NCBI GenBank assembly: GCA_001000675.1
Contig: LCHW01000001.1
Span: forward strand, 218,294-282,293
Direction: 5' to 3'
Source of the DNA: Candidatus Wolfebacteria bacterium GW2011_GWE2_44_13
GTDB lineage: Bacteria; Patescibacteriota; Minisyncoccia; UBA6257; UBA9933
Length of the DNA stretch: 64,000 nucleotides
Shown here: piece after piece, positions 3,197 through 55,409 of the stretch
Numbering within the stretch: position 1 is the stretch's first letter
Layout of the letters: each line of letters opens with the position of its first letter
Translations under genes and position numbers: made by a program
The notes under the pieces: generated by a model
Databases searched by the model: none
The model's input: the letters and a program-made list of their open reading frames with translations, nothing else
Told to the model about the DNA's origin: nothing

Positions 3197-3270
3197 TGCC
3201 AGATCGTCTAATGGTAGGACAGCGGACTCTGAATCCGTCAATCTTGGTTCGAATCCAGGTCTGGCAGCCA
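3197..3270 (+). tRNA. tRNA-Gln (anticodon CTG)
   Basis: Manual cloverleaf fold: U1:A72 acceptor TGCCAGA/TCTGGCA, U8, D-stem GTCT/GGAC, anticodon stem GCGGA/TCCGT with loop CTCTGAA, T-arm CTTGG-TTCGAAT-CCAGG, discriminator G and an encoded CCA. Confidence 0.8.
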
Positions 3271-3379: not shown

Positions 3380-4663
3380 ATGAACCTAGTATTTCCAACA
3401 GAAGGCGAGGTAATTGATTTCTTTACTGTCCATACTGGGTATCTTGATGTTCATCGCATTTCTGAATTACTAGTAACTCATCAGCATGCCAACCTCCAAG
3501 AAAGTGAATGGAAACATATATATAAAGTCTTACACAAGCTTAAATCGGAAGGTTATTTATTAGTACAGAATGAGGGCGGAGATATATATAGTGAAAAATT
3601 TTCATCTACTCCAGACAGGATAGAAAAATTTAACGAGAGGAAGGCGAAGGATAAGGAATTCTATACAAATAAAAATAAAAATAGGGCGGGTACGGTTAAT
3701 TTCGATTATTCTAATAACAACGGCATATATTTTATTGGAGATGCTGATTACTTATTTGGCATTAAATTCTCATCTGCTTCTCAGGACTCTATCCATGTAT
3801 ATAATGATCATACCACTATTGATTACATTGCCTTAATAAAAAATGTTACCAATTTTGATCAAATAAATTTTAATATAAAATACGATGGAACTTCTCGATC
3901 ACGGAGTCCTGAAGTTGGACAGATAGTTTTATTTAAAAATAAAAATGGTAGATACGCTCTGATTAAAATTGAAGATATTAAAGTTGAAAACCGTGGAGAT
4001 AAAAATGACGAGGTCACTTTTTCATTTAAAATTCTCGATGATAAATATCCTGACCTAATCGTGGGCGAAGAAAGGTTCTCGGGAAATTTTTCTCTAAGTA
4101 AAAAAAGCAAGACTGACCTTGACGATAGCGTTGTAAGTGGGGATAAAATTATCGCTATGGGGATAGCTCAAGATCCAGCAAGAGAATCTTGGTACAAAAT
4201 ATCGTGGCCTATTTTTAGAAAGTTGCCAAAAAAAATTTTAGTAAGCATAATTTTCGTATCTATTTCCATAATTTTATTATTTGTTTTTGATTTTAATTTG
4301 GATAGTGTACAAATTGGTCCGTTAGGTTTTGCGCCTCCCAAGGAACAGATCGAAGAGATTCCTAAAAATATACAGGGAGAGGCTAAATTAATCGCAGATT
4401 CAATAGTGATTACAGGGTGGGAAGATCCCGGCGATTACATTGGCTATCTTAGTCAAATATCTTCTTTCTATCAGCGACATCAAGACATATATCCCGCAGA
4501 AGCTGCTACTTACAAGAGGCAATTAGTTGAATGGCAGGATAAATTGCAAAGAATAAATAATTCAGGAAGTACGATTTACAATTCTGATTTTAGGGTTTTG
4601 GAAGGATTAGTTAACTCAGCTCAAAGCCAATTAAGAAAAATTTCTACAATTATTAATCCTTAA
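3380..4663 (+). CDS. hypothetical protein with a central TM segment, in an AT-rich island
   Basis: Long ORF whose GC is lower than its surroundings. It contains one hydrophobic helix. No family was recognised. Confidence 0.5.
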   Translation: MNLVFPTEGEVIDFFTVHTGYLDVHRISELLVTHQHANLQESEWKHIYKVLHKLKSEGYLLVQNEGGDIYSEKFSSTPDRIEKFNERKAKDKEFYTNKNKNRAGTVNFDYSNNNGIYFIGDADYLFGIKFSSASQDSIHVYNDHTTIDYIALIKNVTNFDQINFNIKYDGTSRSRSPEVGQIVLFKNKNGRYALIKIEDIKVENRGDKNDEVTFSFKILDDKYPDLIVGEERFSGNFSLSKKSKTDLDDSVVSGDKIIAMGIAQDPARESWYKISWPIFRKLPKKILVSIIFVSISIILLFVFDFNLDSVQIGPLGFAPPKEQIEEIPKNIQGEAKLIADSIVITGWEDPGDYIGYLSQISSFYQRHQDIYPAEAATYKRQLVEWQDKLQRINNSGSTIYNSDFRVLEGLVNSAQSQLRKISTIINP

Positions 4664-19568: not shown

Positions 19569-19597
19569 AAAAAAACCGTCTGAAACGGTTTTTTTAT
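19569..19597. terminator. Bidirectional intrinsic terminator
   Basis: A7-ACCGT-ctgaa-ACGGT-T7. Confidence 0.65.
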
Positions 19598-20052
19598 TAT
19601 GCGATTTTTAGTATTTCAAATTCGCGTTCTTTTGTGCCGACCATTCCTTTTGCGCGTTGTCCCACTGCCTTATTAAGAAAAAGTGCCCCTAGTGGAGATG
19701 CGTATGAAAGGGTCTGTTCTGTAAAGGTGATATGACTTCCGATGCGAAATGTTTTTTCTTCGCCTGTTTCGCTATCGCGTGCGGTAACGGTATGGCCGAT
19801 TGCTACGGCGGCGTTTGTTTTGGGGATAGCGATTATCGTGGCATTTCTGCGAATATGCTCAAGGTCTTGCAAGCGTTGCTCCAATAATCGTGCCTGTTGC
19901 TGGGCATTTTCAAAAGGGAAGTTATCGTGCCATGTTTCAGAAGATTGCGTTACGGCATTGCGCAATTCTGCTCCCGTTTCCTGTAATTTCACAATGGTTT
20001 CTTCGATATATGACTCAAGTATTTTTAGATCGTCTTCGAGAAAATAAGGCAT
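19597..20052 (-). CDS. greA: transcription elongation factor GreA
   Basis: N-terminal coiled coil (LT..G...L..EL) and a C-terminal FKBP-like domain. Start at the Met at 20052 (MPYFLEDD). The longer ORF-track start at 20124 would include leader repeats. Confidence 0.8.
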   Translation of the reverse strand: MPYFLEDDLKILESYIEETIVKLQETGAELRNAVTQSSETWHDNFPFENAQQQARLLEQRLQDLEHIRRNATIIAIPKTNAAVAIGHTVTARDSETGEEKTFRIGSHITFTEQTLSYASPLGALFLNKAVGQRAKGMVGTKEREFEILKIA

Positions 20053-20055
20053 ACC

Positions 20056-20169
20056 TTTATATAACGAAGTATGGTCTATAAAGTTACGCTTCGTCGGTGC
20101 TATTGATACGGAAATGAAATACATTTATACAACGAAGTATGACCTATGAAGTCACGCTTCGTCGGTGCC
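20056..20169 (-). repeat. Two tandem ~45-bp imperfect direct repeats, each a stem-loop (ACGAAG...CTTCGT), in the greA 5' leader
   Basis: Copies at 20056-20100 and 20125-20169 share about 40 of 45 positions. A third hairpin CGTCGGTG-N19-CACCGACG follows at 20159-20193. Confidence 0.5.
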
Positions 20170-20264
20170 GTGGAAAATAAAACGTCACCGACGCTCTGGC
20201 ACGTTGCACGCTCTTCCGCTCTCCGTATAAACGAATGGAGAGCGTTTCGCTAGCAACGCCCAAT

Positions 20265-53104: not shown

Positions 53105-53130
53105 GATTCCGGCTTCCGCCGGAATGACAA
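53105..53130. repeat. Small palindromic repeat unit (GC variant ATTCCGGCG), copy 4a
   Basis: gattccggcttccgccggaatgacaa. It is inverted relative to copy 4b. Confidence 0.6.
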
Positions 53131-53193
53131 TACAAAAATACAGCACAAAGATAAGCATCCATATTTTAAGAGGAAGGTTGAGCTCCTTCGTGT

Positions 53194-53219
53194 GTCATTC
53201 CGGCGGAGGCCGGAATCCA
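53194..53219. repeat. Small palindromic repeat unit, copy 4b
   Basis: gtcattccggcggaggccggaatcca. With 4a it brackets a 63-bp AT-rich spacer. A partial unit also occurs at 53521-53535. Confidence 0.6.
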
Positions 53220-53280
53220 GTACAATAAGAACATGAAATAATATTACGTATATATCCTTGCGAGTAAGCGCAACGGTACA

Positions 53281-53517
53281 TTGTATATAGGCGTGACCAA
53301 TGATTTAAAGAGGCGAGGGTATAAGCATAAAGAAAAACTGGTAAAAGGGTTTACGAAAGTGTATAGCGTGGACAAGCTGGTTTATTTTGAAATGACAGAA
53401 AATATAACAAGCGCAATCGAAAGAGAAAAGCGGTTAAAGGAGTGGAATAGAAAGTGGAAATTAAAGTTAATTGAAAAAGAAAATCCCGAATGGAAAGATT
53501 TATATGGGATGCTCTAA
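53281..53517 (+). CDS. small GIY-YIG nuclease family protein (UPF0213/COG2827-like), N-terminus apparently truncated
   Basis: Motifs YIGVTNDLKRR...H...K...E. The family-typical residues YYVYILASKRNGTL are encoded in-frame upstream from 53242, but they follow a stop and have no ATG/GTG/TTG start. The only available start is the TTG at 53281. Confidence 0.55.
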   Translation: MYIGVTNDLKRRGYKHKEKLVKGFTKVYSVDKLVYFEMTENITSAIEREKRLKEWNRKWKLKLIEKENPEWKDLYGML

Positions 53518-54029
53518 CCTGGATTCCGGCCGGAGTTTATCCATGAACCATGGGGGTGAGCTTGTCGAACCATTGCCGAGCGGGCTCAAAGTGACAATAC
53601 AAGAACATAGAGCAAATCCCACTGTTGTAAGATTCTGACCTCCCTGCTAATCGACAGGGAGGCGCCAAAAATGACGATGGGGGCGGTCGTCCACCACCGT
53701 CATTTTCGGGAGGGTTTTGAGGTTCGTTCTTGTCGAGCAATGTGTTACTGGAATTAATTTCTAGGGTTGCTGGGTCGTGTAAAAATGGATTTTCCTATTG
53801 TGCGAGTAACGTAAGTCGCGTATACTTAAAGAAGTATTTTATACGTGGGTAATAAAAATAAATAAAGATCGAGCCTTCCTCTTGCGCGGAAACAATCGAT
53901 ACGCTTGCTCTCCTGCGATACTCTTGCGTGCATCGTTGAGCAATTATAGAAAATCTGTCATCTCCTGTTGCGAGATTATTTTTTGTTTTTATCTCTGTAT
54001 AATAAATTCTTATGTCCGTGCGTTTGCCT

Positions 54030-54073
54030 ACTTAGCACAAAGTCTCTCCTTCTCTGGAGAGACTTTGTGCTAA
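54030..54073. repeat. Perfect 19-bp inverted repeat hairpin (6-nt loop)
   Basis: CTTAGCACAAAGTCTCTCC-ttctct-GGAGAGACTTTGTGCTAAG. It abuts the duplicated tRNA-Gly fragment. Confidence 0.7.
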
Positions 54074-54079
54074 GTGTAT

Positions 54080-54326
54080 GAGCGGGTAAAGGGAAGCGCC
54101 TACAAGTCTTGTCTCGCCCTGCCTACCGGCAGGCAGGCGTCGCTCAACAAGCTCGCAGGCCGCCCCTGACTTGGCGTTGCTAGCGAGCGAAGTGAGCGTG
54201 CAACGTGCCGAAATGCCGGCGGAATATAGGGTTATAGTGAAGCCGGCCGCGATACGTCCTGCTGGACGCATATCGCTGCGGTCTTCGATTCCCTACACGA
54301 GTGAAGCAGTTCACTCGTTTTACCCG
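54080..54326. other. GC-rich (~60%) 250-bp structured element bounded by inverted copies of the tRNA-Gly 3' end. It is probably an integration scar, a miniature element or an unidentified ncRNA.
   Basis: Left end gagcgggtaaagggaa is identical to 54367-54382 of the adjacent tRNA gene. The right end ttcgattccct[23-nt hairpin]tttacccgc is the same tRNA 3' end in the opposite orientation. The interior contains several perfect hairpins. Confidence 0.5.
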
Positions 54327-54330
54327 CAAA

Positions 54331-54366
54331 CATAATAAAGCCCCAAAGGGCTTTATTATGTTTTTT
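54331..54366. terminator. 16-bp perfect palindromic hairpin flanking tRNA-Gly
   Basis: AAACATAATAAAGCCC-caaa-GGGCTTTATTATGTTT followed by T6. Confidence 0.5.
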
Positions 54367-54367
54367 G

Positions 54368-54438
54368 AGCGGGTAAAGGGAATCGAACCCTCGCTTCAAC
54401 CTTGGGAAGGTTGCGCACTACCACTATGCAATACCCGC
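54368..54438 (-). tRNA. tRNA-Gly (anticodon CCC)
   Basis: Manual cloverleaf fold on the minus strand: acceptor GCGGGTA/TACCCGC, D-stem GCAT/GTGC, anticodon stem CAACC/GGTTG with loop TTCCCAA, T-arm GAGGG-TTCGATT-CCCTT and discriminator U. CCA is not encoded. Confidence 0.8.
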
Positions 54439-54497
54439 TGTTCGGATGCTATATTAAGCTTTTGTATTATACGAAAAGAATAGGGGTTACCGCAACC

Positions 54498-55328
54498 TTA
54501 TTTGTTTGTATACGGGAAAGGCACTATCGTATCTCCATTGCGAATAGGAGTTTCTTCGAGTAGTTTTTTGCGAAGGTTTATTGCCTCGTGTAAAAAATCG
54601 ATAACCTCGGCGTTATTGGAATCGATGAGTGCCGTTAGCTCTTCAAGTTTTGTATTAAAGGTGGCGGAATCCGATTGTGTTATTACATTACCCTCGCTTG
54701 TTTGAATATATAACTCGGCAAGCTCTGGTTTGTTTGCGTGTATCGGATATGCTAAATAATCGACTGACCCCGTTATTGTATTAAGAAATCGAATTGATAA
54801 TGTGGTTTGCTTTGGGTGAAATGCTCTTTCAAAATATTGCGCACGAGTTAAGTCGTGAGTGCATGGGTTGCTTATGTTTATTGTAAATGTGTCGATGCGG
54901 TTTTGATATGGCCAACTTTTTGTAATAGTGATTAAGTCCTTTTGCCTACGGAGAGTTAGGATGCTTTTCTCGCCGCGGGTAATTGGAAATGAGTCTGCAG
55001 AATAGCTGTTCACTATTGTGCTTATATCGATTGGTTCGCAATGCATAAGATAGGGATCTACTAAGAATAGTTTTTCTTGTATAGGGCAAAGAACTGAACG
55101 ATGTCGGCCATTAATCATGTCTTCTACGAGATAGGCCTTAGAGAAGCCTGCGGCAATTAACGTATTGCGCAGAGAACGTGCCTGTTCATAACAATTTGAT
55201 CCGAATTTTTTAGACGGACGTTGTCCATCGAGAATATAGAGTGAAGCTGCCGAGCTGTATTGGAACGATAGTGAGTCGATTAGAATTTGCCTTAATTTCT
55301 GGAATTCCATATGCGCATACCATAGCAC
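54498..55328 (-). CDS. hypothetical protein with a possible Cys-His-Asp hydrolase/transferase triad (NAT/transglutaminase-like fold?)
   Basis: C(GSNCYEQA), H (31 aa later) and D (15 aa later). This spacing resembles arylamine N-acetyltransferase/transglutaminase-like cysteine enzymes. The assignment is weak. Confidence 0.35.
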   Translation of the reverse strand: MLWYAHMEFQKLRQILIDSLSFQYSSAASLYILDGQRPSKKFGSNCYEQARSLRNTLIAAGFSKAYLVEDMINGRHRSVLCPIQEKLFLVDPYLMHCEPIDISTIVNSYSADSFPITRGEKSILTLRRQKDLITITKSWPYQNRIDTFTINISNPCTHDLTRAQYFERAFHPKQTTLSIRFLNTITGSVDYLAYPIHANKPELAELYIQTSEGNVITQSDSATFNTKLEELTALIDSNNAEVIDFLHEAINLRKKLLEETPIRNGDTIVPFPYTNK

Positions 55329-55409
55329 TGCTGCGCAAAAAGGGGAATACCGCCGCTGGTATTTTGGGGTGCTTTTTGCTATACTTCGATATACACATAA
55401 GCGCCATAA

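Follow-up and report, generated by a model that had tools for sequence, protein, structure and literature searches.

What is the GC-rich, hairpin-rich segment that lies beside the tRNA-Gly(CCC) gene of Candidatus Wolfebacteria bacterium GW2011_GWE2_44_13 and is flanked by copies of the 3′ end of that gene? We analyzed it within a stretch of 64,000 nucleotides (contig LCHW01000001.1, positions 218,294 to 282,293; hereafter, the window), to which coordinates refer unless a locus is named. The original prediction, made from the sequence of the window, regarded the segment as a decayed or miniature element integrated at the tRNA, or as an unrecognized tRNA-like RNA. Comparison with related loci (designated L001, L005 and so on) led us to propose, with moderate confidence, that 54079-54327 is a non-autonomous, site-specific insertion unit for tRNA-Gly 3′ ends in which the fold matters. 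The features required for the argument are as follows.

54030-54075, no strand: distal hairpin with perfect 20-nt arms (54030-54049 and 54056-54075) and a 6-nt loop (repeat search)
54079-54095, minus strand: left end of the unit, which repeats the tRNA-Gly 3′ end and 2 bases of the trailer (repeat search)
54096-54283, no strand: GC-rich body, conserved in L148 and L167 and made of several hairpins that are perfect or nearly so (fold and GC content)
54284-54327, plus strand: right end of the unit, where the tRNA 3′ end is copied in inverted orientation, TTCGATTCCCT .. TTTACCCGC (repeat search)
54328-54366, no strand: proximal AT-rich hairpin (54328-54363, 16-bp arms) with an A-tract and a T-tract on both sides (repeat search)
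54367-54438, minus strand: tRNA-Gly(CCC) gene (ARAGORN; Rfam tRNA model, 65.8 bits)

Insertion and a conserved family at two tRNA-Gly loci

Full-length homologues of 54079-54327 were found in two other Wolfebacteria at a non-orthologous position, the gatB/parB locus, beside tRNA-Gly(UCC). In one of them, L148 (GatB P0027), the copy of which is identical in L152 and L155, the unit sits between gatB and a parB-like gene, and its parts follow the same order as in the window: hairpin, tRNA 3′-end copy, GC-rich body, inverted copy (TTAGATTCCCCAC, a 22-nt hairpin, then TTTATCCGC), hairpin and tRNA. L167 carries the unit at the gatB locus without an 80-nt module that is present in the window. The left-end copies of L148 and L167 match the 3′ end of their own tRNA-Gly(UCC), and the right end with its 22-nt hairpin is retained in both, with compensatory changes. 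A hairpin also occupies the position of the distal hairpin in L148, L167 and, with another sequence, a sister genome of the window; equivalents of the proximal hairpin were detected in L148, L167 and L014.

The orthologous gatB sites include filled (L148, L167) and empty (L166, L168) alleles, and at the empty tRNA-Gly(UCC) sites the terminator hairpin directly abuts the tRNA. The flank GGGAAAWTGCAATAAAAC is common to the empty L166 and to L148, which favors classical integration inside the tRNA end. The gatB locus of the window's own species has no tRNA-Gly. At the tRNA-Gly(CCC) locus of the window, the sister genome GWC2_39_22 (loci L005-L007) is ~99% identical to the window up to 54011, where identity drops abruptly; it keeps a hairpin, the tRNA in identical form on the minus strand and, displaced, a copy of the tRNA end (GAGCGGGTAAAGGGA). 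Between the displaced copy and the tRNA lies an unrelated insert of 930 bp with a gene for an HD-motif protein of 247 aa. L008 and L010 lack an insert at tRNA-Gly(CCC), and L014 has a non-homologous insert of ~190 bp, followed by a 17-nt displaced tRNA end and a hairpin resembling 54328-54363. The predicted insertion at the tRNA-Gly 3′ end, variable in length among relatives, was thus borne out. The tRNA is intact beside the inserts, which are flanked by direct repeats as are tRNA-targeting elements; the repeat is longest in L148 (24 nt), followed by L167 (18 nt), the window and L014 (17 nt each) and L005 (16 nt).

These alignments establish an insertion with empty-site alleles and a conserved family tied to tRNA-Gly at two non-orthologous loci. 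That the unit is one copy of a small non-coding, GC-rich and hairpin-rich family residing at the tRNA-Gly 3′ end or terminator in Wolfebacteria is a reading to which we would give an even chance. As a negative baseline only, we examined 120 unrelated genomes with the same tRNA 3′ 23-mer, dominated by Pelagibacter and other taxa with the same tRNA end; a second copy of the 12-mer core was found in none of them (8-kb locus, both orientations).

In the window, the bases of 54079-54095, TGAGCGGGTAAAGGGAA, recur exactly and in the same direction at 54366-54382, and 19 of 20 positions agree between 54079-54098 and 54366-54385. The exactness of this copy had been predicted correctly; its length is 17 nt rather than 16. 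The left-end copy is inverted relative to 54284-54327, in which TTCGATTCCCT (54284-54294) is 100% complementary to 54377-54387 and is split from TTTACCCGC (54319-54327) by AC and a perfect 9-bp hairpin, ACGAGTGAA-GCAG-TTCACTCGT (54297-54318). This inverted copy with its hairpin was also anticipated, except that the hairpin has 22 nt, not 23. As terminal inverted repeats, 54080-54095 and 54284-54327 pair over 14-16 bp, interrupted by the 22-nt hairpin. The palindrome outside the unit proved to be perfect (100% complementary) as stated, with arms of 20 nt instead of 19, and it occupies a terminator-like position next to the displaced tRNA end. The proximal hairpin is likewise terminator-like, is readable in both directions, and separates the unit from the tRNA gene; a scan of 53400-54700 for sigma-70 promoters and terminators called none, the proximal hairpin included.

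The GC fraction is 0.61-0.63 over 54075-54299 compared with a mean of 0.427 for the window, and this is the sole stretch of the 64 kb in which it exceeds 0.57 (200-nt windows). The original prediction of about 60% GC between the tRNA-end copies therefore holds (61-63% over ~190 bp, compared with 43% for the window), as does that of a segment packed with hairpins. Compared with shuffled sequences, none of 200 of which folded as well, 54078-54328 has a fold z of -7.0 (minus strand) or -4.9 (plus strand). Further, 53500-54600 is 100% identical in five loci from three data sets (L001/L137, L136/L139 and L138), all of which carry the insert, and an assembly artefact is thereby ruled out. We also observed that the ACD_81 assembly (2012) and several Logan contigs break beside the element (L141/L142 end at 53989, and L003 starts at 54366); short-read assemblies are fragmented there because 375 bp are rich in hairpins and repeats.

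Junction, fold and competing explanations

The tRNA gene (54367-54438) and 54284-54366 together form an imperfect palindrome of 115 nt, and the DNA fold of 54278-54392 has a free energy of -42.8 kcal/mol (z = -13). Imperfect palindromes of 104-121 nt, with DNA-fold z values of -6 to -14, were found at the inserts of the window, L148, L167 and L014. All four are built from the 3′ end of the tRNA gene, the hairpin next to it and a T-arm piece in inverted orientation; in the window, L148 and L167, but not in L014, the palindrome also includes the acceptor strand. L014 builds the same palindrome although its insert is not homologous. The inverted T-arm piece was not found in the HD-gene insert of the sister genome.

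The inner boundary of repeat identity falls inside the T-loop in all five inserts, at positions 56-60 (C56 in L148, G57 in L014, A58 in L167, U59 in the window and U60 in L005). Repeats that start inside the T-loop are said to be the pattern of integrase-type integration into tRNA genes, reportedly set out by Williams in 2002. The general outcome of such integration is one complete and one partial tRNA copy as direct repeats (PMC9897764).

Each end of the unit is thus a copy, inverted relative to the other, of the last ~16-20 nt of tRNA-Gly. The outer one directly repeats the 3′ end of the gene, and the inner one forms, with the terminator-like hairpin and that 3′ end, the palindrome of ~110 nt. 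The route that we propose is as follows. Insertion would occur by site-specific recombination within the segment of the tRNA gene from the T-loop to the 3′ end. The unit has no coding capacity of its own, so any recombinase would have to be supplied in trans. The conserved fold, as DNA or RNA, would be needed for the insertion reaction or for maintenance. The body has secondarily gained smaller palindromic repeats (the 80-nt module at 54168-54247 and a 20-nt hairpin at 54118-54137), and in the lineage of the window the orientation of the whole tRNA unit is also opposite to that of its old promoter.

Several results weigh against this proposal. No integrase, transposase or reverse transcriptase domain was detected in the 49 window open reading frames (ORFs) scanned, in agreement with the original prediction concerning integrases, and no recombinase was detected in the genes neighboring L148 and L155. 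BLASTN against phage and plasmid collections gave no match, four pattern scans of viral contigs (conserved 20-25-mers or the module pattern) gave 0 hits, and no free, circular or phage- or plasmid-borne copy was found in the collections searched. The unit has a single copy in the 64-kb window and a single copy on the 647-kb contig of L148, and it is thus not a high-copy miniature inverted-repeat transposable element (MITE). The boundaries are also ambiguous: the proximal hairpin of the window resembles the distal, presumably ancestral, terminator of L014, and the distal hairpins of L148 and L167 are 89% alike compared with 78% for the proximal ones. Both likenesses suggest that the unit lies beyond the tRNA's own terminator, and that the "displaced end" is a terminal repeat of the unit rather than attR. 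All of the terminator-like hairpins are 60-78% alike, owing to their A and T tracts. Finally, the covariation evidence described below is thin, as three copies are available, and selection on pairing together with conserved unpaired columns would fit a host RNA gene equally well.

From the left copy through the inverted copy, the unit of the window shares 87% identity with that of L148 and likewise 87% with that of L167, and the units of L148 and L167 are 93.5% identical to each other; only 54079-54327 is conserved at the 87-93% level across loci. Between L148 and L167, gatB is 78% identical, its 4-fold sites 48% and the neutral spacer on the parB side 52%. Given 48% at saturated 4-fold sites, the unit is far better conserved than neutral DNA. 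Stems changed in a compensatory manner, from ACGAGTG/CACTCGT to GCGAGTG/CACTCGC, from CGTCC/GGACG to CGCTC/GAGCG or CGCCC/GGGCG, and from CTTGT/ACAAG to CTTGC/GCAAG, and a pair of the closing helix changed from A-T to G-C between copies. RNAalifold applied to the three copies returned 70 pairs with 6 double changes for the plus strand and 66 pairs with 4 for the minus strand. In the plus-strand structure, 97.4% of cells were paired (32-41% in slid controls), and the observed covariation was matched by 2 of 500 shuffles. The plus strand had about 4 wobble pairs and 5 mismatches, the minus strand 3 of each. Unpaired columns were about as conserved as paired ones. For three sequences, these results are suggestive of constraint on pairing.

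Readings of the unit as transfer-messenger RNA (tmRNA), retron msr/msd, group I or II intron or riboswitch were rejected, as Rfam gave no match and ARAGORN called no tmRNA. Rfam 15 covariance models applied to 54076-54366 yielded nothing credible, tRNA-like families included, even at E ≤ 10, with only tRNA passing the gathering threshold, and the units of L148 and L167 matched no family either, so Rfam offers no explanation of the segment. As for a retron, the ORFs flanking the unit in the window, L148 and L155 contain no reverse transcriptase domain. No ORF is conserved across the unit as an integrase gene within the element would be, and the longest frame of the unit had no homologue in the protein database.

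The main rival to an insertion unit, and one compatible with mobility, is that the unit encodes a structured non-coding RNA linked to the tRNA, which we consider unlikely though it deserves to be weighed. On the tRNA strand, such an RNA would begin with the acceptor strand GCGGGUA, continue with a hairpin and a T-stem-like helix in which the GC-rich domain stands in for the loop, and end with UUCCCUUUACCCGCUCA and a terminator-like hairpin. It would be co-transcribed with tRNA-Gly or made just after it, and would possibly be handled by tRNA-processing enzymes. In a variant, the RNA would come from the opposite strand, with a 5′ end perfectly antisense to the tRNA-Gly 3′ end, and in the window would be driven by an orphan promoter. 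The strong fold (z = -7.0), the six compensatory pairs with 97% pairing in three copies, and conservation far above neutral that extends to unpaired columns all agree with an RNA gene. The same is true of the constant adjacency to tRNA-Gly with terminator-like hairpins on both sides, of the orphan -10 box upstream on the plus strand (53998-54003), and of an acceptor-like helix of 8 bp with the tRNA-Gly bases G1-C72, C2-G71, G3-C70 and U73, which we take to be tRNA-Gly identity elements. However, the unit is patchy, being absent from close relatives at both loci; it tolerates the presence or absence of the 80-nt module and the 20-nt hairpin; and its closing helix drifts without compensation (TTTATCCGC in L148, TTTAACCCGC in L167). 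Neither an Rfam family nor an ARAGORN tRNA or tmRNA call covers it, the wobble and mismatch counts single out no strand, and no conserved promoter was identified. Further, the non-homologous insert of L014 shares the palindrome, which indicates a feature at the DNA level.

Local rearrangement debris, rather than a moving unit, could have arisen by inversion of the tRNA and its terminator, by palindrome-primed fold-back copying of the tRNA 3′ end across the terminator hairpin, and by later colonization by GC-rich palindromic repeats resembling repetitive extragenic palindromic (REP) sequences. The tRNA unit is indeed inverted relative to the conserved upstream region in the window and the sister genome, the tRNA units of these two genomes were replaced or diverged between flanks ~99% identical, the inverted copy lies exactly across the palindromic hairpin from the tRNA end, and the module is a dispersed repeat found independently elsewhere. 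We nevertheless regard this explanation as improbable: the same sequence of ~170-250 bp, with its ends and internal hairpins, recurs 87-93% identical at a second, non-orthologous locus with empty alleles, and independent local accidents would not recreate a homologous body. Equally hard to accept is a decayed remnant of a larger integrase-carrying island or prophage, to which the classical signature of a tRNA 3′-end direct repeat with a T-loop boundary and the gene-bearing insert at the same junction of the sister genome would correspond, since three copies decaying neutrally in genomes this divergent would not be expected to retain 87-93% identity and to show compensatory changes in their stems, and since neither a coding-sequence fragment nor similarity to phages, plasmids or viral contigs was detectable. 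The suggestion of a decayed scar in the original prediction accordingly gives way to that of a member of a conserved family.

Nested repeats and neighboring genes

Smaller repeats lie within the unit, and an orphan promoter region lies upstream of it:

54118-54137, no strand: nested 20-nt hairpin CCTGCCTACCGGCAGGCAGG, in the window copy only, with a gap in the aligned L148 and L167
54168-54247, no strand: nested 80-nt repeat module, in the window and L148, missing from L167
20198-20260, minus strand: second, solitary copy of the first hairpin of the module, just after a terminator
53810-54011, plus strand: orphan upstream region of the ancestral plus-strand tRNA-Gly, with a -10-like TATAAT at 53998-54003 (alignment with L008, L010 and L014)

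The hairpin at 54118-54137 is, judging from the alignment, a nested micro-insertion. The module consists of the hairpin GGCGTTGCTAGCGA..GAGCGTGCAACGTGCC followed by the hairpin GCCGGC..GCCGGC. Its first hairpin (GGCGTTGCTAGCGA..GTGCAACGTGCC, with a variable inner hairpin) also occurs alone in GC-rich intergenic repeats of several Wolfebacteria contigs, and these solitary sites adjoin neither tRNAs nor GIY-YIG genes. A metagenome scan detected the module pattern at 14 loci with seven distinct sequences, in addition to the two sites of the window; a sub-motif of the unit is common to window 20198-20260 and L008. A GC-rich imperfect palindrome dispersed over many intergenic sites is the mark of REP sequences and bacterial interspersed mosaic elements (BIMEs), and in the unit only the module (54168-54247) has this property. 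No transposase of the REP-associated tyrosine transposase type (Y1 HUH) was found among the window ORFs scanned.

The LexA-to-tRNA spacers of L008 (1257-2307) and L010 (2730-3710) are ~1 kb long and packed with GC-rich hairpin modules ending ..GGCGAGCTCCGCCGGGGT.ACA; the module of window 54168-54247 is found within one of them. In the window, two tandem copies of ~62 nt (gcaccgacgaagcgt.actt..atacttcgtt.tataaa) lie at 20060-20180 on the minus strand, upstream of the ORF at 19597-20124, and adjoin the solitary module hairpin and the terminator.

The window locus is chromosomal, with genes for a D-Ala-D-Ala carboxypeptidase, an MraY-like transferase and a LexA-like repressor, a short GIY-YIG ORF, the element and tRNA-Gly, after which come a 276-aa ORF without a Pfam hit, gyrB, secE and nusG. 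Exact protein matches assign the window to Candidatus Wolfebacteria; its GyrB is identical to KKT43673/EKD24326 (from the ACD_81 groundwater metagenome-assembled genome). In more distant Wolfebacteria, tRNA-Gly(CCC) lies on the plus strand directly after a conserved upstream region. The blocks TATACTTAAAGAAGTATTTTAT and TTCCTCTTGCGCGGAA conserved in 53810-54011 are homologous to this region, which indicates that the tRNA unit was inverted in the lineage of the window and its sister. By this alignment, the orphan promoter region now points into the element and not to the tRNA. The view of the region as a recombination hotspot is a fair one, as near-identical genomes differ by the replacement or divergence of 54012-55372, which also has the opposite orientation in outgroups. 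Compared with 2746-4048 of L005, this tRNA-Gly unit has been replaced or has diverged to the species level between flanks ~99% identical on both sides; the change affects the hairpin, the insert and the 276-aa ORF (54498-55328), and the tRNA and 15 nt of the displaced end are identical.

The 276-aa ORF is missing from the sister genome, and homology between it and the 247-aa insert gene of that genome was rejected; neither has a Pfam hit. A scan of the genome collection with the 276-aa protein found no relative. Some Wolfebacteria encode a protein of 242-276 aa with no Pfam hit between tRNA-Gly and gyrB (window 54498-55328, minus strand; L014 3653-4381); L008 and L010 have an ORF of 202 aa there instead. 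The hotspot thus also holds a variable accessory gene. The gyrB gene contains an intein (PF14890; GyrB of 1079-1099 aa) in L008, L009, L012 and L013 (3315-6614), and none in the window, L005, L010 or L014. Elsewhere in the window, an ORF of 427 aa (3380-4663, plus strand), right downstream of tRNA-Gln (3197-3270), had no Pfam match even at E = 0.5.

Upstream of the element, the GIY-YIG gene noted earlier was identified (ORF 53281-53517; PF01541, E = 3e-12). Its proposed linkage to the element was rejected, as no GIY-YIG gene lies near any other copy of the unit or module. The frame (53235-53517) begins ATG AAA TAA, with a stop at codon 3, and continues in frame with YYVYILASKRNGTLYIGVTN; the product given by gene callers has 74-78 aa and lacks the start of the GIY motif, and the ORF may be a pseudogene. 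Upstream of the ORF, GTCATTCCGGC..GCCGGAATC hairpin repeats form an inverted pair (53105-53129 and 53193-53217), and the 25-mer of these repeats occurs at several intergenic sites in L010 and L011. Just after the ORF, cctggattccggccggagtttatcc (53519-53543) recurs near module copies in L147 and L158. These repeats and the GTCATTCCGGC/GCCGGAATC pair look like a second dispersed repeat family in Wolfebacteria.

Known systems and significance

The unit resembles islands and prophages that target tRNA genes through tyrosine integrases, and their derivatives of the cis-mobilizable element (CIME) type, in that the insert lies 3′ of an intact tRNA gene, is flanked by a 16-24-nt direct repeat of the tRNA 3′ end starting inside the T-loop, is present at some orthologous sites and absent from others, and is replaced by different inserts at the same tRNA site in related genomes. 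In contrast to these elements, it is ~170-290 bp long and gene-less, with no integrase nearby; its body is conserved and structured rather than decaying; and an extra inverted copy of the tRNA end forms a long palindrome with the gene.

The attachment site attP of CTX phage is a folded substrate of a tyrosine recombinase. The integron site attC likewise recombines as a folded single strand (PMC3458562). The unit shares with an integron cassette and its attC a topology of direct repeat, cargo, inverted copy, variable hairpin, and direct repeat at the target; with attC and CTX attP it shares an imperfect palindrome with an extrahelical element and a non-autonomous state with the enzyme elsewhere. 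As in attC, the palindrome at the junction could, according to the predicted fold, fold as a single strand. The unit differs in its target, a tRNA gene and not attI or dif, in its non-coding "cargo", and in junctions without the GTTRRRY core; no integron integrase was found in the window ORFs scanned, and no array was seen. Single-strand recombination is known for those systems, to which the unit is likened by fold and topology.

By this analogy, we tentatively suggest, with low confidence, a cassette-like system at tRNA-Gly in Wolfebacteria, in which the site would be a folded hairpin rebuilding the duplex of the T-arm and acceptor end. The order of inverted copy, terminator hairpin and direct copy would then be comparable to that of integron attC or CTX-phage attP. 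In this conjecture, a host-encoded recombinase would swap gene-less units, and perhaps cassettes such as the HD-like gene of the sister genome, at tRNA-Gly. Alternatively, the unit may encode a new class of structured RNA derived from tRNA-Gly.

Like MITEs and REP sequences or BIMEs, the unit is small, encodes no protein, ends in inverted repeats and is strongly prone to form hairpins; unlike them, it is single-copy on each large contig and strictly tied to tRNA-Gly. Further, its terminal repeats are the target gene's own sequence, and it has neither a clear short target-site duplication nor a known partner transposase. The acceptor-like helix with tRNA-Gly bases that closes a larger domain, and the proximity to tRNA genes, are reminiscent of tRNA-like RNAs (the tRNA-like domain of tmRNA, YrlA and viral tRNA-like structures). 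The unit differs from these in having no T-loop and no D-loop analogue and in escaping recognition by ARAGORN and Rfam, and it is known here from sequence alone.

In the literature searched, no paper combined Wolfebacteria, tRNA and mobile elements. Bacteria of the Candidate Phyla Radiation (CPR) have tiny genomes, and to our knowledge few mobile elements have been described in them. A miniature insertion unit of this sort, which is structured, lacks an integrase and resides at tRNA-Gly genes of CPR bacteria, would represent a kind that has not been catalogued. The unit breaks assemblies, and automatic island finders would misread it as a pseudo-tRNA fragment or an "island scar". A conserved gene-less unit at tRNA-Gly with empty alleles means either active site-specific insertion in this lineage or an unrecognized tRNA-linked RNA. 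If the palindrome is a recombination substrate, folded-hairpin sites would extend from integrons and Xer-exploiting phages to tRNA targets, and such sites would explain the turnover of integrase-less DNA at tRNA genes.

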